DNA of 44,115 nt from a virus. The stretch is from UHGV virus genome UHGV-0177176; one strand, 5' to 3'. This document shows positions 3,745 to 13,736 of the stretch, piece after piece. Position numbers and translations under genes: made by a program. How positions within the stretch are numbered: the first letter of the stretch is position 1; each line of letters starts with the position of its first letter. The notes below the pieces were generated by a model. It worked only from the letters and a program-made list of their open reading frames with translations. It did no database searches and was not told the origin of the DNA.

Positions 3745-6060
3745 ATGGCATACAGCTGGCAAGAGTCGGTAAAGCCTGCAGGTACACAGGATATCCAGTG
3801 CGATATTGAGTATCTGGATAAGTCCTACATTCACGTTTACTTAGATGGTGCTGAGACTACTGCCTTCACTTGGACCAGCTCCACCAATATTCGTCTGAAC
3901 TCCCCACTGTCTGCAGAGACAGTGGTGCTCCTCATTCGTAAGACTGAACGAGAGTACCTCTACATTGAGTTTGCTAGTGGTGCTCCGTTCATTGAGGGTA
4001 ACGTAGATACTCAGAACACGCAATTCCTACACCTAGCCCAAGAGCTGGTTGAGGGACGTTCTATCGAGGGATTCTACGGGGACATTAACATGCACCGTTA
4101 CCGCATCACAAACCTGGGAGACCCGGTGGATGCAAGGGACGCTGCGAACAAGCAGTATGTTGATGCCGGGGATGCCCGGCTCGATGCGCGCATAGATGCA
4201 GAGGCAGCTGCTCGCAAAGCTGCTGATGACGCTTTGGATATACGCACTACCAATCTAGAGCAGACATTCTTCAACGCTAACACCAATAGCTTTCCGTGGT
4301 GGATGGTGGTGCCCTATGACACTAAAACCATAACTCCTGGAATACCTTTTACTAAGGCTAAGATTAGGCTGAATGGCGTAACTCAGACTGCAGGTTATTC
4401 TTATAGTATCAACAATGGCACAGTAACGTTCGCAGAGACTGTGCCAGCAGGTACCTTGGTAGATATGACTATTGGTGTAGATACTGATGTTGATACAGGG
4501 GCAGTTGCGAGTATCCTAGGACTGCTTAGTTCAGACAAAGGATTTAACTACATAGGCGGGGTGCCCTTTATTTACCCGGAAGCCTACGCAGATGGTACCG
4601 GGGATTGGCGCATGGCTCTACAGGCCGCCCTGGATGCTGCACATAGTAACGCTCTTAGTGGCTCAGGCCCAACTACGGTGCTCGCCACGGGGCATTACCG
4701 CATATCCTTAAACCCCAACAGTTTGGCGGTTGCTGGTGAGTTGGCCGCAGGTCGGTCCGCACTAAATATACGCTCAGGGGTAACTCTTACCGGGGGAGGG
4801 ACTATCACCCTGAATGGGGGTGTTGGTGGGTCTTCTTCCGGGGCTATATTGACCAACTGGGACGGTAGTGCGGACTCTGTCACAATCTCGAATATAACAT
4901 TCGATGGAAACGTTTCACAGAACGCCGGGACAGGCATTACGTGCGTTAACATTCTAGATTCTGCTAACGTGGTGTGCGAGGGTGTGCGCGTACTCGGCAG
5001 TCCTTCCGGAGGTTTATACTTTAGGCGGGCAGGTTCTGGTACCTATGGCTGCTCCAATCTGACGGTGCGCGGATGTGTAGTGACTAATACTGGGTACATA
5101 GGGATACAATGCGAGCGTCCGGATGGTGCCATTATATCCGACTGTATTCTCCAGAACATTGCCGACAATGCTGTGGACATCTTCGGGAATGACGGCTCAT
5201 CCACAGCCCAGGGCTATGCAAATGGCATAATAGTCAGCGGGGTAGTGGCTCGCAACGTATCCGTGGGGGTATTCTTAGAGTCCTGTGGTAACGCGGATGT
5301 AGTTGGCTGCAGATTCGAGGAGTTTTCAAACTCCGGGGTATTCTTAAACCGGATAAACACGGCCTCGTATCAAGTCAACATTAAGTCTAACACATTCATC
5401 GGGGCCTCCTTAACCTCAAGCCAGGGTGTGCGGATGAAGAATGCTGTCGGTTATTGCAATATTGAGTCAAACATGTTCAGTAACTGTATAGACTCAATTG
5501 CGACTACCGGGGGTATGATTTATACGCATATAGGCAGGAACACGCATGAGAATATAGGGAGATGCTTCCTATATGTACCAAAAACCTCAAACGGTTGTGT
5601 GTACTCTTATATGGAGCGGCAGTATTATCGGGGAGTGCAAACAAACGGCATCCCGTATAACACCACTCCGAGAGGGTACCCATCCAGCGGAAACACTAGA
5701 TTCTACAGATTTGGTGCGGAAGCCCCGTACTCTATGTACGCAGCCGCAGTGGGGGAAGATAATTTCGTAAGGGGTGGAGGGACTCTCCCATCTAACAGCG
5801 GCTGGGGGCCGGCCTACTCCCTGTACAACAACCCGGTTGCAAACGAGACTGTTATAGCATTAGGGTCCTCCAGTCTGGCTGCTGGGGAGTTTATCCTAGT
5901 GGGCGGGTATTATTATCAAATCTATAGTGTGGCAGCATCCTACTCTGTAGTGCGGAAGTGGGATGATAGCAGCCAGGCATTCGTTGCGGGAGATTACACC
6001 TCGCTACTAAACAGCGCACTAGCTTACACTATATACCGACAAGCTTGGGGGACTATATAA
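3745..6060 (+). CDS. Tail fibre / tailspike 1. The N-terminus is a T7 gp17-like particle-binding domain, followed by a right-handed parallel beta-helix (probable polysaccharide depolymerase)
   Basis: N-terminal ~150 aa resemble the T7 gp17 N-terminus (…YRITNLGDPVDARDAANKQYVD…). The downstream region carries PbH1-like repeats (NITFDGN…GITCVN…VRGCVVTNTGYIGIQC…ILQNIADNAVDIFGNDG). The ATG is 1 nt after the gp16 stop. Confidence 0.85.
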   Translation: MAYSWQESVKPAGTQDIQCDIEYLDKSYIHVYLDGAETTAFTWTSSTNIRLNSPLSAETVVLLIRKTEREYLYIEFASGAPFIEGNVDTQNTQFLHLAQELVEGRSIEGFYGDINMHRYRITNLGDPVDARDAANKQYVDAGDARLDARIDAEAAARKAADDALDIRTTNLEQTFFNANTNSFPWWMVVPYDTKTITPGIPFTKAKIRLNGVTQTAGYSYSINNGTVTFAETVPAGTLVDMTIGVDTDVDTGAVASILGLLSSDKGFNYIGGVPFIYPEAYADGTGDWRMALQAALDAAHSNALSGSGPTTVLATGHYRISLNPNSLAVAGELAAGRSALNIRSGVTLTGGGTITLNGGVGGSSSGAILTNWDGSADSVTISNITFDGNVSQNAGTGITCVNILDSANVVCEGVRVLGSPSGGLYFRRAGSGTYGCSNLTVRGCVVTNTGYIGIQCERPDGAIISDCILQNIADNAVDIFGNDGSSTAQGYANGIIVSGVVARNVSVGVFLESCGNADVVGCRFEEFSNSGVFLNRINTASYQVNIKSNTFIGASLTSSQGVRMKNAVGYCNIESNMFSNCIDSIATTGGMIYTHIGRNTHENIGRCFLYVPKTSNGCVYSYMERQYYRGVQTNGIPYNTTPRGYPSSGNTRFYRFGAEAPYSMYAAAVGEDNFVRGGGTLPSNSGWGPAYSLYNNPVANETVIALGSSSLAAGEFILVGGYYYQIYSVAASYSVVRKWDDSSQAFVAGDYTSLLNSALAYTIYRQAWGTI

Positions 6061-6362
6061 TGGCGGGGGCGGCTAAACGCAGTCGCCTCTCGGAGCTGCA
6101 CCGAATGTTCACTGAGGCCTTGATTGAAGAAATCAAGCAGTCCAAGGAAGATGAGGTGCCGCTCCCCGCCGCGGATAAATCCGTTATCGCTAAGTTCTTG
6201 AAGGACAATGACATCACTGCGGACGCAGATTCCGAGGAGATGCAGGACCTTCGTGACGAGTTCGATGACGAACTAGCGGCGCGCAGAGAGGCGCGTAAGC
6301 AAGAGATTCTAAACAAAGTTGGTGGTTCCGACTCTGAGGACTTACTAGAAGGAATTGTCTAA
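6060..6362 (+). CDS. Terminase small subunit (gp18-like, DNA maturase A), putative
   Basis: 100-aa ORF with an acidic C-terminus, lying between the tail fibre and the large terminase as in T7 (18 then 19). Start TAATG-coupled at 6060. The track ORF begins at 6045, but the internal ATG at the upstream stop is preferred. Confidence 0.6.
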   Translation: MAGAAKRSRLSELHRMFTEALIEEIKQSKEDEVPLPAADKSVIAKFLKDNDITADADSEEMQDLRDEFDDELAARREARKQEILNKVGGSDSEDLLEGIV

Positions 6363-8218
6363 TGGTATCGGTGAAGACTGCGCGAAGACTGCGCATGCTC
6401 AACCAGAAACTTACTGGTTATAGTGCGAATCCGCGCAGTATTCCCAAAGAGGAGCGCGAGGACATCGCGATGATGATGGCCGCTGCGCTAAGCGACTTCC
6501 GGGAATTTGCGTACATCGGTATGCGATTCCTGGGGTTTACACTGACGGACATGCAGGCCGACATTGCAGAGTACATGCAGAAGGGCCCTAGGAAGCGCAT
6601 GGTGGCTGCGCAGCGTGGTGAGGCTAAGTCTACACTAGCTGCGCTCTACGCTGTATGGAGGCTCATCCAGGACCAGTCCTGCCGTATCCTGATTGTATCA
6701 GGGGCGGAGAAGCAGGCGTCCGACGTAGCGAACTTAATCATTCGTATGCTGGAAACCTGGCCGCTGCTGTGCTACTTAAAGGCCGACCCTACCCGCGGGG
6801 ACCGTACTTCATTCGAAGGCTACGACGTCAACTGCGACCTGAAACCGCTGGATAAGTCTGCCAGCGTAGCGTGTGTCGGTATTACCGCGTCCCTGCAGGG
6901 GAAGCGTGCTGACCTCTTGATTCCAGATGATATTGAGACCACCAAGAACGGTTTGACACAAACCCAGCGTGAGCAGCTGCTGATGATTTCGAAAGACTTC
7001 GCGGCTATCTGTACGCACGGGGACACGCTGTACCTGGGTACACCGCAGACCAAGGACAGTATTTACAAGACCCTGCCGGGGCGTGGCTTCGAGGTCCGCG
7101 TGTGGCCCGGACGCATCCCGTCTGTTGAAATGGAAGAACGATATGGAAGTACACTTGCTCCTTATATACTGCAGCTCATTGAGCGGGGTTATAAACGCAC
7201 CGGCTTCGGCGTCGACGGGACGCTAGGGGAGAGCACCGACATTGGTCGCTACGACGAGGATGCGCTGATTGAGAAGGAACTGGACTTTGGTCCAGAGGGC
7301 TTCCAGCTGCAGTACATGCTCGACACGACCCTGTCTGACCAGATGCGTACCCGTATCAAGCTGTCGGATATGCTTGTATACTCCGGTAGTCTGGACTCTT
7401 CTCCTGAGACCTTCTCCTACATTGCGGACCGCCGGTACCTGTACCAGCATGAGCATGAAGGGATTATGGGTCAGCAGATGTACTCTCCGGCATTCTACGG
7501 GGATATGCACTTGCCGTATCAGCACAAGGTGCTGGTGGTGGACCCGGCTGGTTGTGGCGGGGATGAAGTCTCCTATGCTGCAGGCGGAGCTGCGAACTCA
7601 TACATTCACCTGTTCTCCGTTGGGGGTTTCCAAGGAGGTGTAAGCACTGAGAATATCGACAAGCTCATTGACCTGTGCGTAGAGTTGGACATCTCGGACA
7701 TGGTGGTGGAGAGCAACATGGGGCACGGCACTGTGTCCATGCTTATCCTGAACCGTTTACGAGAGCGTCGTCTTGCTGGTATCGGTGTGCGTGACATCAA
7801 CAACACCACACAGAAAGAGCGCCGTATTATCGACACAATCAGCCCAGTAACTCGACGTCACCGCCTGGTAGTGCATGAGCGTGCTATCCACGACGATATC
7901 GGAACCTGTATGTTATATTCCCGGGACCGTCGCTGGCTGTACTCTGCGTTCGCGCAGCTCGCGGGTATTACGTATGACCGCGGTAGTCTCGCTAAGGATG
8001 ACCGAGCGGACGCCGTCGCTATGATGGTGGCAGTGCTGAACGGGCACTTGGTAGAAGACGAGAAAGTAGTAGCTGAGCGTGAGTCCGAGAAGATGGCCCT
8101 GGCCTTCATTGAGAATCCGCTGGATTGGGCACAGAACAAAGTGTCTAAGGGACTTCGCGGTGTAGCGGCTCGGTTGCAGAACCGAGGCAGAGGTAAACAA
8201 CATAGAGGAAGAAGATAA
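6362..8218 (+). CDS. Terminase large subunit (gp19-like, DNA maturase B)
   Basis: 618-aa ORF with size and position typical of T7-group TerL. TAATG overlap with the upstream gene. Confidence 0.85.
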   Translation: MVSVKTARRLRMLNQKLTGYSANPRSIPKEEREDIAMMMAAALSDFREFAYIGMRFLGFTLTDMQADIAEYMQKGPRKRMVAAQRGEAKSTLAALYAVWRLIQDQSCRILIVSGAEKQASDVANLIIRMLETWPLLCYLKADPTRGDRTSFEGYDVNCDLKPLDKSASVACVGITASLQGKRADLLIPDDIETTKNGLTQTQREQLLMISKDFAAICTHGDTLYLGTPQTKDSIYKTLPGRGFEVRVWPGRIPSVEMEERYGSTLAPYILQLIERGYKRTGFGVDGTLGESTDIGRYDEDALIEKELDFGPEGFQLQYMLDTTLSDQMRTRIKLSDMLVYSGSLDSSPETFSYIADRRYLYQHEHEGIMGQQMYSPAFYGDMHLPYQHKVLVVDPAGCGGDEVSYAAGGAANSYIHLFSVGGFQGGVSTENIDKLIDLCVELDISDMVVESNMGHGTVSMLILNRLRERRLAGIGVRDINNTTQKERRIIDTISPVTRRHRLVVHERAIHDDIGTCMLYSRDRRWLYSAFAQLAGITYDRGSLAKDDRADAVAMMVAVLNGHLVEDEKVVAERESEKMALAFIENPLDWAQNKVSKGLRGVAARLQNRGRGKQHRGRR

Positions 8219-8592
8219 TGGCATCAATCATTGCGGCTAAAGCTGCGGACGTCCAGTACGCTATTGTAGGTAAGAGCCAGAACCTCGAGAAAGAGGTAGC
8301 CCCGGACTACAATGTAGGCTTCGTAGGTACGACTGCCTTAACTAAGCTGAACGCGTTCTTCACGTACATGCAGTCCCAGGGTTACACGGCTACCCGTGCT
8401 GGTACAGCCTTCAAGGATGATGGGACGCTGCAGGCGCGCCTGTTCAGCATGCTGTCACAGCTCTCTAAGACTGGTTACGTCGCCCTTACGGGTACAGGCA
8501 TGCCGCTCGGCGAGGGTTCTGGTACAGCGTTTGATACTTCGTTCACCGCACTGCAGAGTGCATTCATCGCCGCTACTGACGCGGAAGAATAA
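8218..8592 (+). CDS. Hypothetical protein (124 aa)
   Basis: ORF coupled to the terminase stop (TAATG). No recognisable motif. Confidence 0.6.
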   Translation: MASIIAAKAADVQYAIVGKSQNLEKEVAPDYNVGFVGTTALTKLNAFFTYMQSQGYTATRAGTAFKDDGTLQARLFSMLSQLSKTGYVALTGTGMPLGEGSGTAFDTSFTALQSAFIAATDAEE

Positions 8593-8603
8593 GGAAAGTA
8601 CAT

Positions 8604-8786
8604 ATGGCAATTGCTAAAGCGACTCAAGCACAGCGGCAGGAGCTGTTGCGCCAACTAAACATTCTGGGCAAGGACCTCTATACAATCCTTACTCAGCCAC
8701 AGGATGTAGCCCAGACCGGTGCAGCGTTCGACGCTAAGATTGCTGCCCTAGAAGCTGCTATTGCAGCGGTGAAGGCGGCTAGCTAA
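8604..8786 (+). CDS. Hypothetical small protein (60 aa, Ala/Leu-rich, predicted helical)
   Basis: SD AAGGA lies 8 nt upstream. The ORF ends in TAATG overlapping the next start. Confidence 0.5.
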   Translation: MAIAKATQAQRQELLRQLNILGKDLYTILTQPQDVAQTGAAFDAKIAALEAAIAAVKAAS

Positions 8787-9190
8787 TGCATAAACTGGTC
8801 GCTGGGTTACTGCTCGTAGTTACTCTGACTGGTTGCTCAGCGACCTCTGCACTTACCGGCTTAGTTGGTTCTAAGCCGGAGGTATCTGCACAGGTTGGTG
8901 CTGAGAATACTAAGCAGATGCTCGGATTGAATAATAAGGTGGACTCCAGCACCACCAACAAAACTGATGTGCAGGATTCTAACGTAGGTACACTGGATAC
9001 TTCTAGCAAGAAGCAAGTACAGACTATTAGTACTGGTACAATCCAGGCAGAACGCCTACAGGTAGTTAACAACGATAGTTACAGCCTTATCCTCGCCGGA
9101 TTAGCAGGGGCCAGTATTCCTTTGGTCTTCCTAGTGACCGTTCTGGTGATTCGTAAGCTGTTTAGGAAGAAGGGTCAGCAGGATGATTAA
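8786..9190 (+). CDS. Unimolecular spanin (u-spanin) candidate
   Basis: N-terminal lipoprotein signal with lipobox LTGC (MHKLVAGLLLVVTLTGCS). Middle region is Ser/Thr/Asn-rich and likely periplasmic. C-terminal TMD (LILAGLAGASIPLVFLVTVLVI) followed by RKLFRKK. This is the same architecture as T1 gp11. It is adjacent to the holin and endolysin. Confidence 0.7.
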   Translation: MHKLVAGLLLVVTLTGCSATSALTGLVGSKPEVSAQVGAENTKQMLGLNNKVDSSTTNKTDVQDSNVGTLDTSSKKQVQTISTGTIQAERLQVVNNDSYSLILAGLAGASIPLVFLVTVLVIRKLFRKKGQQDD

Positions 9191-9434
9191 AGTGGGAGAT
9201 GTAGTTGGGGCAGACCTCGCTACCCGGGCAGGAGCAGCTGTTACTGGTGCTACAGTCTCAGGAGGCTGGTTGGCGGAGTTAATGAGTTGGAACTGGAGTG
9301 TTATCAGCTTCATTACTGCAACGGTATGCGCGGTGCTAACCCTGGCGTGGAATGCGTACTATAAACGACGCACATACAAGCTCCTAGAAGAGCATGCACG
9401 TAAGGGGGCAATTAAATATGAGTTTAAGGACTAG
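9183..9434 (+). CDS. Holin (probable pinholin, class II-like)
   Basis: 83 aa. TMD1 is weakly hydrophobic and Gly/Ala-rich; TMD2 is strongly hydrophobic (WSVISFITATVCAVLTLAW); the C-terminus is charged. It overlaps the u-spanin 3' end by 8 nt and sits just upstream of a SAR endolysin. Confidence 0.7.
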   Translation: MIKVGDVVGADLATRAGAAVTGATVSGGWLAELMSWNWSVISFITATVCAVLTLAWNAYYKRRTYKLLEEHARKGAIKYEFKD

Positions 9435-10017
9435 GGTTATAGCGGCACTCGCCGGGGCTACTGTGCTCGGCGGAGCTATTACTGAGGTAGTCCAACACAA
9501 TGAGGGTTTGAGCCTTACGGCCTACAAAGATAGTGCTGGTATCCCTACAATCTGCTACGGGGAGACAAAGGGCGTCAAAATGGGCCAGAAAGCCACTCCG
9601 AGCGATTGTCAGAAGCAGTTGATAGAATCAGCAGGGGCACATGCAAAGGCCCTTGACGGGCTTTCTATGCAGCTTTCTGATGTGGCTCTGATAGGGTCTG
9701 TGGATTTTATCTATAACGTGGGTGTATCTGGCTTCAACAATAGTGCCGTGAAGAGACATCTCAAAAGCCTTGATTATGCAGCTGCCGGAAAAGCCGTACT
9801 AAACTGGCGCTACATTAGCCGGTACCAGCAGAAGTCCCCAGGTCCTGGTTGGGTACACAAAGGAGGGAACCGCTGGACCTTCGACTGCTCCCAGTACATT
9901 AACGGGCAACGTAATAAAGTATGCTGGGGACTATGGGAACGTCGGCAGTGGCAGAGTAAAGCCATCAGTAATCAATTTAACAGTGTTCAAACAGCTGTAA
10001 CTGAATTAAAACGATAA
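9418..10017 (+). CDS. SAR (signal-arrest-release) endolysin, GH24 T4-lysozyme-like muramidase. An alternative start at 9394 is possible
   Basis: N-terminal Gly/Ala-rich weak TMD (LRTRVIAALAGATVLGGAITEVV), typical of a SAR domain. Catalytic E…D…T spacing (EGLSLTAYKDSAGIPTICYGET), as in T4 e / P22 gp19. Confidence 0.85.
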   Translation: MSLRTRVIAALAGATVLGGAITEVVQHNEGLSLTAYKDSAGIPTICYGETKGVKMGQKATPSDCQKQLIESAGAHAKALDGLSMQLSDVALIGSVDFIYNVGVSGFNNSAVKRHLKSLDYAAAGKAVLNWRYISRYQQKSPGPGWVHKGGNRWTFDCSQYINGQRNKVCWGLWERRQWQSKAISNQFNSVQTAVTELKR

Positions 10018-10027
10018 GTGAGGGTAC

Positions 10028-12037
10028 ATGGCCTTAGATAAACTCGTGAAAGTAGCACCGCCGGTGTTAGATCCGTTAGGCTTTACAACTCCGGAACAGT
10101 ATGGGTATGTACCCGGGGCTAGCTCAGCAGCAAACGCTACAAGTATTATGAGTGCATTGGCTGCTGCCAAAGCTCGGAAGTGTCCGTGTAAGTTTTCTGA
10201 GGGTGTGTATTCTAGCGATACCATCTCTCTGGATTATGCGGTGGCTGTGGAGGTAGCGGCAGGTGCCTACTTAGACTTTACCTTGATAATGCAAGGGCAG
10301 CACTTCAGTGCCTCTGCTACTGTAAACACGTCCTTAACGTGGGCAGATGTCCCTGTAGGCAGCACTAGCTTGGCTGGTAACTTCTCTGCATTCTCTGCAG
10401 GAGATGTTGTGGCGGTGAGTTTGAATGACTCTATCGGCGGCAGCGCCTCTCAGGGTAATGAAATTGGTACGGATATTATGATCGTAGCCAGTGCTGATAG
10501 CTCTAAGATTACGTTTACATCGGGTACTCGATACGCCTACACCAATCCCGTAGTACGGAAGCTGACAGCGGCTGTAAAACTGTCGGGGGTAGTGGAGGCA
10601 GGTACTTACAGTATTGCAGGGGATTACACCGCTAAGTTTGCTGCGGGGGACATCTTGAGGGTAGAGAATGTCGATGGGACGGATTCTGTTGAGGCACATA
10701 CCTCATACTTAGAGTTTGTTAAAGTGGTTAGTGTAAGTACCTCGGCCTTAGTGTTAGACCAAGCTCTATACTACACTCACGGGAGTCCGTGGTTAGTGAA
10801 GACTGGATGGGTGGAGGGTGCACATGTATCCGGTGGTGGTAGAATCAAACGTCTTGAGTTGAGGCAAGCAGTACACCCAGAGGTCCAGGACATTGACGTA
10901 GATCGGCTTATCTACGGCTTCACCTACGGCTTAGTTAGCTCCGGCATCTACGCTCGTGGTGTGAAAGAGCCTAGTACTATCAATCACACCTACTGCTTTG
11001 GGCGGATGCAAGTTCATAATATAAAGGCAGGTGGTAGTGTTGCAGTTACAGATAACGCCGCAATCAAGTTCATGTCCTGCCCGGGCGCTCAGATTAGTGG
11101 ACTTACAGTTACGAATACTGCGGCTACTGGTAGCCAGGGTGATTATGCCGTGTTCGTGGATGCTTTCTATACCCCGTACTATTCCTGGAACCGGGATATG
11201 CAGTTGCAGGGTGTAACTTGTGAGTCACCCCGTAGTCCTGTTACTCGAGGTGTGTGGTTCTATGGTGCTGCAGATAGTATGTTTAAGGACATAGTGGGTG
11301 CGCAGGTGTTCTTGCAAGGCTGCTACCGCACTATCCTGCGTGACGTGGTTACACCGCGCTGGCAGATGGAGTTACGGGACCTAGTGCACTGCACCGTTAA
11401 GGACTGCCACGTTAAGAACTTCACCGTTCTTGGCTGTGATAGTACCGAGTTTAGTATCCGCACAGATGGTCTAGGTACAGGTGCAAGCCTAAACATTGCA
11501 GGACGCTTCGGGGGCGGTACGCGCAACCCTGTTACTGGGGAGACGTATAACTTGGGAACAGGCAACCGCATCGGCATTCAAAGCGATAGTACTAGCAGTA
11601 GCGCTATCACCCTTAGTATCGCACAGCAGGACTCCTTCATTATTCTGAGTGGGTGCTGTGACCGTAGCACTGTTAATGCAAGCATCAAACTAGGTAACAA
11701 TGTAACGAATCCATTCATGGAGCCTAATAGCCTTCGCGGCGCAATTGATGCAGGTTCCGGCTGGGCTGGTCCAGTGCAGAAGGGTGGTATTGAATTCCGA
11801 GGTGATTACCGGGATGGTTATGTTCGGCTCAACGGTTATTACGTGTGGATGTCCAGCACTGGGCAGCTTCGAGCTAGCAGTACTAAACCCTCTTCAGACT
11901 CGCCGTCTGGATTCATCCCGATCGGGCCTAATACTGCTTCGGCGGTAAGTAATAGCTCTGGTACGGATGCAGCTAGTGTAGCTGTGAATGCGCTTATGGC
12001 GAGTCTGCGTGCTGCAGGTATCTTGAAGACCTCATAA
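10028..12037 (+). CDS. Tailspike 2: beta-helix receptor-binding protein / probable depolymerase without a gp17-like N-terminal adaptor
   Basis: 669-aa ORF with repetitive beta-strand-rich Gly/Ser/Thr/Val composition and PbH1-like segments (…ISGLTVTNTAATGSQGDYAVFVDA…). It is the last gene before the terminal non-coding region, as in KP34-like phages. SD GAGGG. Confidence 0.75.
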   Translation: MALDKLVKVAPPVLDPLGFTTPEQYGYVPGASSAANATSIMSALAAAKARKCPCKFSEGVYSSDTISLDYAVAVEVAAGAYLDFTLIMQGQHFSASATVNTSLTWADVPVGSTSLAGNFSAFSAGDVVAVSLNDSIGGSASQGNEIGTDIMIVASADSSKITFTSGTRYAYTNPVVRKLTAAVKLSGVVEAGTYSIAGDYTAKFAAGDILRVENVDGTDSVEAHTSYLEFVKVVSVSTSALVLDQALYYTHGSPWLVKTGWVEGAHVSGGGRIKRLELRQAVHPEVQDIDVDRLIYGFTYGLVSSGIYARGVKEPSTINHTYCFGRMQVHNIKAGGSVAVTDNAAIKFMSCPGAQISGLTVTNTAATGSQGDYAVFVDAFYTPYYSWNRDMQLQGVTCESPRSPVTRGVWFYGAADSMFKDIVGAQVFLQGCYRTILRDVVTPRWQMELRDLVHCTVKDCHVKNFTVLGCDSTEFSIRTDGLGTGASLNIAGRFGGGTRNPVTGETYNLGTGNRIGIQSDSTSSSAITLSIAQQDSFIILSGCCDRSTVNASIKLGNNVTNPFMEPNSLRGAIDAGSGWAGPVQKGGIEFRGDYRDGYVRLNGYYVWMSSTGQLRASSTKPSSDSPSGFIPIGPNTASAVSNSSGTDAASVAVNALMASLRAAGILKTS

Positions 12038-12187
12038 AGCATCTGGCAATCACAGGGGTATCCTTGGAGCGCTCTTGGGGTATCTCTAGGGTATCTCTGT
12101 AGGAGTTCATGGGCGCACGTCTATATCTGGACCTAAAATTTATTAGACTTACGCGAGGGCCTCCCTCACCCTCAGCGCGCCCAATTG

Positions 12188-12233
12188 CCCCCATAGGGGG
12201 GTGCCTAGGGAGAATTTAGGGGGGGGGCACCCC
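12188..12233. repeat. Compound palindrome: CCCCC-ATA-GGGGGG, plus the inverted repeat GGGGTGCC…GGCACCCC flanking a G9 homopolymer
   Basis: Read directly: cccccatagggggg at 12188-12201, GGGGTGCC at 12198-12205, GGCACCCC at 12226-12233, G9 at 12219-12227. Confidence 0.8.
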
Positions 12234-12600
12234 TAGTGGGCTGCTTGGGCCTGCTAGTGCGCACCAGCGGGCCTCAGTGGCTCTCTGCGCTGCGCTAGGG
12301 CTATCGCTAGTGCTACCCTACGGCTATCCCTGTGCGTTCACTGTGGGGCCGCTAGGGCGCTCTATGGGGCGCTGGAGGTGCGCTCTGCCTTGCTTATTTT
12401 GTGCGCCTCAGTGTGGCACCTAGTGGGGCCATAGTGGACCACCTAGTGCGCCGGCAGAGCGTCACAGTGCTATCACTAGTGCGCACTCGGCTATCCATTG
12501 GCTATCCTTAGCGCTTTACATTGTGCTTATTATATGCTACGCTGCGCGCTCCCCACTAGGGCGCACATCCACTATCCGCCACTATCCCTAGAGCTATCCC
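12233..12600. repeat. Array of dispersed short direct repeats (CTAGTG[C/G] at least 6 times; GCTATCC at least 6 times; CTAGGGCGC 2 times)
   Basis: CTAGTG occurs at about 12233, 12254, 12308, 12420, 12443, 12474 (and 12856). CTATCC occurs at about 12300, 12324, 12491, 12502, 12572, 12582, 12594. This is analogous to the short-repeat arrays in T7 terminal repeats. Confidence 0.6.
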
Positions 12601-12633
12601 TTCTATATTCTCTTTCATTCGGAAGCTAGTATG

Positions 12634-12656
12634 AAATGAAGTTACCGGAGTAGGAG
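12634..12656 (+). promoter_or_regulatory. Copy B of the conserved motif AAATGAAGTTACCGGAGTAGGA(G); candidate phage-RNAP promoter in an OL-like position
   Basis: Exact 22-mer shared with 32404-32425. The 16-nt core GTTACCGGAGTAGGAG is shared with 792-807. Confidence 0.4.
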
Positions 12657-12810
12657 GGTTTTAGGGAACTACATACACACTACACACTACTACTCACTAG
12701 TATCCCCTAGTAATGCCCTGTATTACGACCGTAGGGAGTAAGCATTACCTACATATTAACCGCATTGCTCCGTGTCCTTTCACTTCGTACGGACACTACG
12801 CACTGCCTTA

Positions 12811-12860
12811 TGTAGTATTGGTTAGTATTGGTTAGCATTGGTTAGTAGTGGCTAGTGCCA
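12811..12860. repeat. Tandem 10-bp repeat (GTTAGTATTG, about 5 units, degenerate at the 3' end)
   Basis: tgtagtattg|gttagtattg|gttagcattg|gttagtagtg|gctagtgcca. A 10-bp phase suggests an iteron-like or protein-binding array. Confidence 0.75.
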
Positions 12861-12889
12861 TCCATAGTGTGGTTATAAGTCCTTGCCCT

Positions 12890-12960
12890 GCTTACTCTTT
12901 TTGCTCTTAAGGATAAATATTTGCAAAAACTTTAAAATAATACTTGCTTCTTTTGGTCTG
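12890..12960. other. AT-rich island in an otherwise ~53% GC genome
   Basis: ctttttgctcttaaggataaatatttgcaaaaactttaaaataatacttgcttctttt. It lies adjacent to the 10-bp array and upstream of the sigma70-like promoters. Confidence 0.6.
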
Positions 12961-13075
12961 TTGGCGCTATAGTTCAATCACCGGGAGGCACTGAGGCGCT
13001 AACCGGGGTCGAGCCGGGAGGCTCTGCCGGATTAAAGCTAGATGGTGTGAAGGGTTAGATACTCAATAAAAAGAG

Positions 13076-13104
13076 TTGACACCGCGAAGAACATAAGCTA
13101 GATT
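13076..13104 (+). promoter_or_regulatory. Sigma70-like early promoter P1 (TTGACA, 17 nt spacer, TAGATT)
   Basis: Perfect -35 at 13076-13081, 17-nt spacer, -10 TAGATT at 13099-13104, A-rich sequence upstream. It lies ~410 nt before the first early gene, as with T7 A1-A3. Confidence 0.5.
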
Positions 13105-13218
13105 AAATCCAAGCATTACGGCAGGATAGTTGAAGACAGGCCGTTAACTAGGACACTTCCACGTGGCAAGCCACCACAGGGCGCTGTACCGTAACCAGAT
13201 GGCTTAAAAGTAAAACGC

Positions 13219-13247
13219 TTGACAAGTTCGGATTCACCTAGTAACTT
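13219..13247 (+). promoter_or_regulatory. Sigma70-like early promoter P2 (TTGACA, 17 nt spacer, TAACTT), weaker -10
   Basis: Perfect -35 at 13219-13224. The -10 matches at only 3/6 positions. Confidence 0.3.
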
Positions 13248-13520
13248 AGATGGCGAACGATGCAGTAAGCCGATTTGCGGGGAGGCCCAGTACCTTGACT
13301 GGTACGATAACGACCAATCCTAGATAATCAGTGTAGTAAAGAAGTAACATCAAGAGCTGAGATGACAAACGGCTGGGGCGCTGAGGCGCTGCCCCTTAAA
13401 AGAATAGCGCCGAACCCTGAGCCACAGGGTCCACGGTTGTGCAGTGGGTAACAAGGTTAAGAATTAGCGTCCTACTAAATTCTGCTAGGGCGTTAATCAT
13501 TAACTTTGATGAGGTACACA

Positions 13521-13736
13521 ATGAAATATCGTGATAAGTTAGCGCAACAATTTGCCGGGCTGGAGAAGTTATCAGGTGCGGAATTGAGAAAGCGTCGAGA
13601 TGCGTTGAATCGCGCCGGTTATATGCGGATGAAACAATCCGCTACATTCAGCACGAATGTACGCGGTAAAACCAAAACAAAGGGCAGTAGCAAGGCTCCG
13701 CAAGGTTGGTACACTGCCGGGCAGTTCGGACGCTAA
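13521..13736 (+). CDS. Early protein (71 aa, basic)
   Basis: SD GAGGT lies 5 nt upstream of the ATG at 13521 (the track ORF starts at a TTG at 13506). First gene of the early region. Confidence 0.6.
   Translation: MKYRDKLAQQFAGLEKLSGAELRKRRDALNRAGYMRMKQSATFSTNVRGKTKTKGSSKAPQGWYTAGQFGR

Follow-up and report, generated by a model that had tools for sequence, protein, structure and literature searches.

In the phages KP34, SU503, SU552A, NTUH-K2044-K1-1 and F19 the lysis genes lie "successively: spanin-holin-endolysin". This cassette, with an 83-residue holin interpreted as a pinholin, an endolysin of the signal-arrest-release (SAR) type and a unimolecular spanin (u-spanin), was considered a defining character of the 'Kp34likevirus' and was contrasted with the holin-endolysin-Rz-Rz1 cassette of phiKMV, to which the KP34-type cassette shows a similarity of ~30% over 22% coverage (Eriksson 2015, PMC4411677). 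Three of these phages (KP34, F19 and NTUH-K2044-K1-1) were also placed within the 28-member u-spanin family of T1 gp11, in which all but two members accompany a pinholin and a SAR endolysin; T1 gp11 complements a lambda Rz/Rz1 defect, and no u-spanin has a periplasmic Cys (Kongari 2018, PMC6139136). The same cassette has been reported in Phimunavirus (Buttimer 2018, PMC6115819), and the JKP2 paper (PMC10194101) describes it together with the overlaps between its open reading frames (ORFs). Here we analyze the corresponding locus of the virus genome UHGV-0177176 (44,115 nucleotides (nt); hereafter, the window), where positions 8786-10017 of the + strand contain three consecutive ORFs, each overlapping the next. 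Judged from the sequence, they very probably constitute the lysis module of the late operon in a KP34-like podophage of the genus Drulisvirus.

The three overlapping lysis ORFs, with the spanin first, were found where the original prediction had placed them, and the contrast that it drew with the Rz/Rz1 pair of phiKMV and T7 is correct and coincides with the published one. It should be noted that the finding is already known: the cassette and its gene order, as well as the identification of the u-spanin and the pinholin/SAR interpretation, were published for the genus in 2015 and have been repeated in many genome papers.

Genome context and relatives

The 1.5-kb region of the cassette was used as a query and gave matches in 245 phage records, with a DNA identity of 83-91%. 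With few exceptions these are podophages of Klebsiella belonging to the genus Drulisvirus (Autographiviridae, Slopekvirinae), whose annotation puts spanin, holin and endolysin at the same site. The same three genes are carried by more than 230 Drulisvirus records within that range, and the DNA identity of the cassette to known records is at most ~91%. In addition, the first 25 kb of the window are collinear with Drulisvirus phages. All plausible genes of the window are located on the + strand and appear in the order internal virion protein, tail fibre, terminase, lysis genes and early genes, an arrangement that indicates a circularly permuted Drulisvirus genome. In phage Putnam, which was annotated by a group specialising in lysis genes, the u-spanin, holin and endolysin are found at identical relative coordinates, each with an annotated ribosome-binding site.

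The spanin gene

The first gene (8786-9190, + strand) encodes a protein of 134 amino acids (aa) assigned to the T1 gp11 family. Its N-terminus, MHKLVAGLLLVVTLTGC, presents a short basic stretch, a hydrophobic core and the lipobox LTGC (codons L14-T15-G16-C17, 8825-8836), and towards the C-terminus there is a hydrophobic segment at residues ~100-122 (Kyte-Doolittle 2.4-2.6), after which the sequence continues RKLFRKKGQQDD. A u-spanin joining this lipobox to a transmembrane domain (TMD) at the C-terminus in one polypeptide had been predicted, and the comparisons agree with it. PHROG 1804, the lysis family 'Rz-like spanin', matched the protein with an E-value of 3.5e-50, and BLASTP aligned it with T1 gp11 at 40% identity over 126 residues, that is, over its whole mature length (E 3e-26). 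Furthermore, when the T1 genome was searched by tblastn (E 8e-15), the matched gene was gene 11, located directly 3' of the T1 holin and endolysin genes. The Pfam lipobox family LPAM_1 scored 16.3 bits, below its cut-off of 20. NCBIfam gave weak matches only, all below threshold (spanin2_3, 20 bits vs 80; BgtA, 47 vs 315).

The topology had also been called rare, which is a relative term: spanin-family matches were obtained by tblastn in 1141 of 50,697 phage records. They include ~250 records of the Drulisvirus type, where identity exceeds 90%, and hundreds from T1-like siphophages, where it is ~40-50%, T1 included. In a search of 1.84 billion cluster representatives only 49 clusters matched the spanin, and the family can therefore be regarded as compact. 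In the large protein search the 120 best matches had 96-100% identity to the query, too high for them to inform on conservation, which was judged instead on the 50%-cluster search, from which 38 diverse homologues were aligned. The lipobox Cys is invariant (38/38), the motif AQVGAENTKQ just 3' of it is almost invariant, and a C-terminal hydrophobic helix followed by 2-5 Lys/Arg is present in 36 of the 38 sequences, while the two homologues without this TMD (P0121 and P0141) look frameshifted. An identical spanin protein exists in public metagenome assemblies (P0001).

Cys17, the lipobox residue, is the sole Cys of the protein, which consequently has no periplasmic Cys. Position +2 with respect to it is occupied by Ser18, and none of the aligned homologues carries Asp there. 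Because Ser at +2 is not a Lol-avoidance signal, sorting to the outer membrane is expected. Lipidation at Cys17 and attachment to both membranes would be expected as well. Altogether, these data support the assignment of the first gene as a putative u-spanin. The lipobox, the TMD and the gene geometry are not chance features.

The endolysin gene

The third gene (9418-10017, + strand) encodes a 199-aa endolysin of the GH24/T4-lysozyme type, similar to R21 of phage 21. The protein begins MSLRTRVIAALAGATVLGGAITEVVQHNEG, with two Arg residues (R4 and R6) followed by a Gly/Ala-rich segment. This segment corresponds to the SAR domain (codons 7-25, 9436-9492, VIAALAGATVLGGAITEVV); 10 of its 19 residues are G/A/S/T, it includes one Glu, and the stretch is conserved in relatives. 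Pfam PF00959 (Phage_lysozyme) matched with 76.3 bits for a cut-off of 22.3. The best PDB matches were 3HDE/3HDF (R21) and E. coli RrrD, with alignments that start at residue 2 and thus include the SAR domain, so the SAR N-terminus claimed for this protein finds direct correspondence in R21. Moreover, the T1 endolysin aligned from residue 1 with 29% identity (E 1e-14). We consider that the assignment of the third gene as a SAR endolysin is supported, its export and release being predicted.

Two classes of SAR endolysin are known: the R21 type, which is activated by a conformational change, and the P1 Lyz type, caged by a disulfide, which carries one Cys within its SAR domain and another, catalytic one where Asp would otherwise stand. 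In the window protein the motif E-8aa-D-5aa-T, as defined in the published literature, is present as E29, D38 and T44 (codons at 9502-9549) and aligns with the triad region of R21 (EGVSYIPYKDIVGVWT). Residues 1-45 contain no Cys and position 38 is Asp. Disulfide caging of the P1 Lyz type is thus impossible, and conformational activation of the R21 type would be expected.

As a separate observation, the endolysin has a tail of ~55 residues past the R21-aligned region (residues ~140-199, 9835-10017), with Cys157 and Cys169. The length of the protein varies among relatives, with 199, 202 or 203 aa in the close ones and 180 aa in L064. The KBNP1315 lysis paper was set aside as a comparison, as it deals with an SP6-like phage with a different endolysin.

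The holin gene

Between the two genes described above, positions 9183-9434 (+ strand) encode an 83-aa holin, apparently distant kin of S of phage 21. Residues 16-34 form a weakly hydrophobic segment in which 12 of 19 residues are G/A/S/T (Kyte-Doolittle mean ~1.0), residues 38-56 are strongly hydrophobic, and the C-terminus is basic. PHROG 20 ('holin') matched with 8e-17, and Pfam PF04971 (P21 holin S) with 27.6 bits for a cut-off of 26 (E 2.8e-6, residues 27-67).

For a direct comparison we used a sequence that we take to be S21 71, on account of its 122-bit match to PF04971, and hydrophobicity values that we likewise take to be those of a Hessa-type scale. The summed values were 6.5 for the first segment of the holin and 6.4 for TMD1 of S21, with 12/19 G/A/S/T in both, and 0.5 and 1.0, respectively, for the second segment. 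In the BLAST alignment, S42, T45, A46 and A50 of the holin stand opposite G40, G43, S44 and G48 of S21. The proposal of a pinholin-like protein with a weak, Gly/Ala-rich TMD1 and a strong TMD2 is consistent with these results, the first segment being equivalent to TMD1 of S21 in both composition and hydrophobicity. A dual-start (antiholin) motif was considered as well, for which M1-I-K-V4(GTG) is the only in-frame candidate in the vicinity; it was rejected, as 32 of 61 relatives have GTA at codon 4.

Gene order across lineages

The gene order was surveyed at 83 loci that encode a relative of the spanin, one of which had too little sequence to be judged. In 82 of the 83 the spanin belongs to a lysis cassette, beside a holin and an endolysin. 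Sixty-five loci present spanin-holin-endolysin with the geometry of the window, and four more distant podophage-type loci have the same order with a different, S21-like holin of 79 aa that was missed by the BLAST screen. The remaining arrangement, holin-endolysin-spanin, was observed in 13 T1-like siphophage loci, located on contigs of ~50 kb, as in T1 itself. Since the spanin is first in all podophage-type loci (69/69) and in no T1-like phage, this order can be considered a lineage trait of these podophages.

Alternative explanations

Several observations weigh against the interpretation given so far. No experiment on any Drulisvirus lysis protein was found in the searchable literature, the basis of the assignments being homology and sequence features. 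Membership of the holin in PF04971 is marginal: a relative with 65% identity scored 20.5 bits and distant relatives 16.5 bits, for the cut-off of 26, and the 79-aa holins of the more distant podophages, S21-like by eye, are among those with 16.5 bits. TMHMM/TOPCONS predictions give this holin one TMD (Eriksson 2015, PMC4411677; JKP2 paper, PMC10194101). As for the spanin, AlphaFold2 was run on the monomer with an alignment of 35 sequences, and the resulting model was confident in two helices only, one at the signal peptide and one at residues 98-133 of the C-terminus (predicted local distance difference test, pLDDT, 78-94), the latter including the transmembrane helix (9083-9151) that precedes RKLFRKK. 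The periplasmic part was modeled with no secondary structure, and thus with no beta strands, and with low confidence (pLDDT <50, including residues 36-77).

The single TMD predicted in those two papers and the loss of the Pfam match in relatives agree with a holin of another kind, that is, a canonical single-TMD protein (class III-like, N-out/C-in) forming large holes, whose Gly/Ala-rich segment would never be in the membrane and whose depolarising effect would free the SAR endolysin. The composition of the first segment also fits, because it contains E32, is flanked by D11 and R15 and has the low Kyte-Doolittle mean mentioned before. However, TMD1 of S21 is equally weakly hydrophobic and is likewise missed by simple thresholds, the PF04971 match of the window holin does pass the curated cut-off, and the members of the T1 gp11 family are, with two exceptions, paired with a pinholin and a SAR endolysin. 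Furthermore, active S21 also has its TMD1 outside the membrane, so that the end state would be the same. We therefore regard a single-TMD holin as unlikely. The best reading of the second gene would be a pinholin-like protein, on the basis of weak homology and of its SAR partner, and its TMD1 would be inserted in the membrane.

With respect to the spanin model, the architecture reported for the family consists of a short periplasmic helix followed by at least four beta strands (Kongari 2018, PMC6139136). It could be that the periplasmic domain (residues ~30-95, including AQVGAENTKQ) is intrinsically disordered as a monomer and folds upon oligomerisation or membrane apposition, although we find this quite unlikely. 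If it were true, u-spanins would act by another mechanism than the 'class II fusion-protein-like beta sheet collapse' that was put forward in 2018.

The first gene might instead encode a lipoprotein with another role, e.g. in superinfection exclusion (T5 Llp, Cor-type), that adjoins the lysis genes by chance. Many records indeed say only 'lipoprotein' or 'hypothetical protein', and a spanin role of the Drulisvirus protein would be attributed to it by homology. Nevertheless, such an explanation is very improbable, given the identity of 40% over the whole mature length to T1 gp11, a protein that complements the lambda Rz/Rz1 defect, and the conservation of the C-terminal TMD, which gives the two-membrane span. 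In addition, the gene adjoins the holin and endolysin genes in podophage and siphophage lineages despite their differing gene orders, and the window has no other spanin candidate.

Finally, a hidden two-component Rz/Rz1-type spanin with an embedded or overlapping o-spanin gene, as the names 'Rz-like spanin', 'RzlA' and 'Rz1-like' in PHROG 1804 and in many GenBank records could suggest, has a practically negligible probability, because the label 'Rz-like spanin' is generic naming, one protein bears both the lipobox and the TMD, and the two-component arrangement is excluded by the lack of any second lipobox ORF between 8200 and 10100 and of any alternative-frame + strand ORF of at least 30 aa within 8786-9190.

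Gene starts, overlaps and translational coupling

The spanin stop and the holin start lie in a common stretch, ATGATTAA, with an overlap of 8 nt. A Shine-Dalgarno-like sequence, GGAAGAAGGG (9165-9174), is located within the spanin gene 8 nt 5' of the holin ATG, an equivalent ribosome-binding site is annotated in phage Putnam, and the start context of the holin is conserved in 60 of 61 relatives. In the case of the endolysin two start codons had to be considered. The ATG at 9394, which appears in the ORF finder listing and in the Kpn13 record, would produce an overlap of 41 nt with the holin gene. Of 61 close relatives, only 4 have ATG at the equivalent codon and 53 have AGG, and this start was rejected. 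The ATG at 9418 is preceded, at a distance of 9 nt and within the holin gene, by the Shine-Dalgarno sequence AAGGGGG (9402-9408), and both this ATG and TAAGGGG are present in 60 of the 61. Therefore, the endolysin gene was taken as 9418-10017; its start is still inside the holin gene, as had been claimed, with an overlap of 17 nt.

The 8-nt and 17-nt overlaps are both conserved among close relatives, and on the 5' side the spanin ATG shares TAATG with the stop of a 60-aa gene. Such overlaps of stops and starts would make some translational coupling of the lysis genes possible, and the observation that the holin start falls in the last codons of the spanin gene was right. The strict coupling that was deduced from it is an over-reading, because each of the three lysis genes has its own Shine-Dalgarno sequence, 16 of the 42 junctions between consecutive + strand ORFs of this genome overlap (by 1-17 nt), and among the four distant podophage-type loci the spanin/holin junction has a 4-nt overlap in two and a gap of 4-5 nt in the other two. 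A scan of 6000-13600 for promoters and terminators found nothing inside the cassette that exceeded the shuffled expectation. It might be that the spanin-first order, in combination with the conserved 60-aa gene joined by TAATG, determines expression ratios or contributes a regulator.

The labels of the cassette in GenBank are inconsistent. The names used for the spanin are 'Rz-like spanin', 'RzlA', 'putative lysis Rz1 protein', 'Rz1-like', 'lipoprotein' and 'hypothetical protein', the endolysin starts at either of the two ATGs, and one holin is labelled 'minor tail protein'. In annotation, the endolysin start should be 9418 and 'Rz-like spanin' should read u-spanin. There are also near-identical cassettes under Acinetobacter or Shigella phage labels (records H9, H7 and H122 were flagged among the odd entries) and an 8-kb 'Listeria phage' record with a 58%-identical holin. 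Such host labels are implausible for a lysis system made for the envelope of Gram-negative cells; contamination or mislabelling may explain them.

Proposed mechanism

The steps that follow were deduced from homology. The three lysis proteins would be made together late in infection. The endolysin would be exported by the Sec machinery of the host and would stay tethered, inactive, in the inner membrane by its weakly hydrophobic SAR domain, while the 83-aa holin accumulates in the same membrane until, at a set time, small holes would collapse the membrane potential. Depolarisation would free the SAR domain from the bilayer, and the lysozyme would refold into its active form, in the style of R21 and without a disulfide switch, and degrade the peptidoglycan. 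Meanwhile the spanin, lipidated at Cys17 and so directed to the outer membrane, and with its C-terminal helix in the inner membrane, would bridge the periplasm as one polypeptide. Once the peptidoglycan is gone, it would disrupt the outer membrane, probably by fusion with the inner membrane, as has been proposed for T1 gp11.

Neighbouring regions

Upstream of the cassette, positions 8604-8786 (+ strand) encode the 60-aa protein mentioned above (phrog_7375), which is helical and is conserved just 5' of the spanin, distant relatives among the podophages (L064, L068-L071) included. It is preceded by a gene of 124 aa (8218-8592, + strand; phrog_7128). In the distant relatives the N-terminus of the 60-aa protein, MAYANATKAQKQALRDA, resembles that of the product of the preceding larger gene, MTFKTATVTQRMAVRDS, which suggests that the two genes may be paralogous.

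Directly 3' of the endolysin gene there is an ORF of 669 aa (10028-12037, + strand) with no match in Pfam, PHROG or NCBIfam. It matched 21 phage records at up to 46% identity, some of them annotated as tail fibre, e.g. in Mimir124 and in SH-KP152226-like podophages. Its position makes it probable that the product is a divergent receptor-binding protein or capsule depolymerase, the second one beside the 771-aa tail fibre (3745-6060).

Further downstream, 12423-13506 is a stretch of 1.08 kb with no ORF of at least 45 aa and a GC content of 47%, compared with 51% for the genome. A terminator-like hairpin (12365-12387) precedes it, and within it a 10-nt sequence, TAGTATTGGT, is present as four tandem units (12813-12852). 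No other place in the scanned region matched a sigma-70-like promoter as well as 13076-13104, also inside this stretch. The ends of the window do not overlap each other. Probably, this stretch represents, in a permuted assembly, the region of the genome end and of the early promoter.

Comparison with known systems

As a discovery the cassette matters little, being a real but ordinary module typical of the genus. Drulisvirus phages are in wide use as candidates for therapy against Klebsiella. In the KP34/Drulisvirus cassettes the genes, their order and their overlaps are the same as in the window, and the cassette is likewise placed after the terminase and two small genes. The described members share 93-100% protein identity with the window in the spanin and the holin and 80-88% in the endolysin. 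Nothing of substance is different, and the window is a new sequence variant.

Outside the genus, the three T1 proteins (gp13 holin, gp12 SAR endolysin and gp11 u-spanin) are all detectably related to those of the window, the holins by a weak match over TMD2 and the tail (E 6e-6), and both phages have in common the logic of a pinholin, a SAR endolysin and a unimolecular spanin. However, the order in T1 is holin-endolysin-spanin instead of spanin-holin-endolysin, and the T1 holin, unlike that of the window, has no PF04971 match.

In the case of phage 21, the window holin resembles the pair of weak TMD1 and strong TMD2 of S21, but it lacks the dual-start (antiholin) motif and has Ser/Thr/Ala in place of the glycine-zipper residues. 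The alignment of the endolysin with R21 extends from the SAR to the catalytic domain, and the E/D/T triad is kept, with the extra tail already described, and phage 21 uses Rz/Rz1 where the window has a u-spanin. Lastly, phiKMV (pinholin KMV44, SAR endolysin KMV45 and Rz/Rz1) belongs to the same family, Autographiviridae, and follows the same pinholin/SAR logic, which was reportedly tested experimentally by Briers and colleagues in 2011. Unlike the window, it has a two-component spanin, and this is placed 3' of the endolysin.

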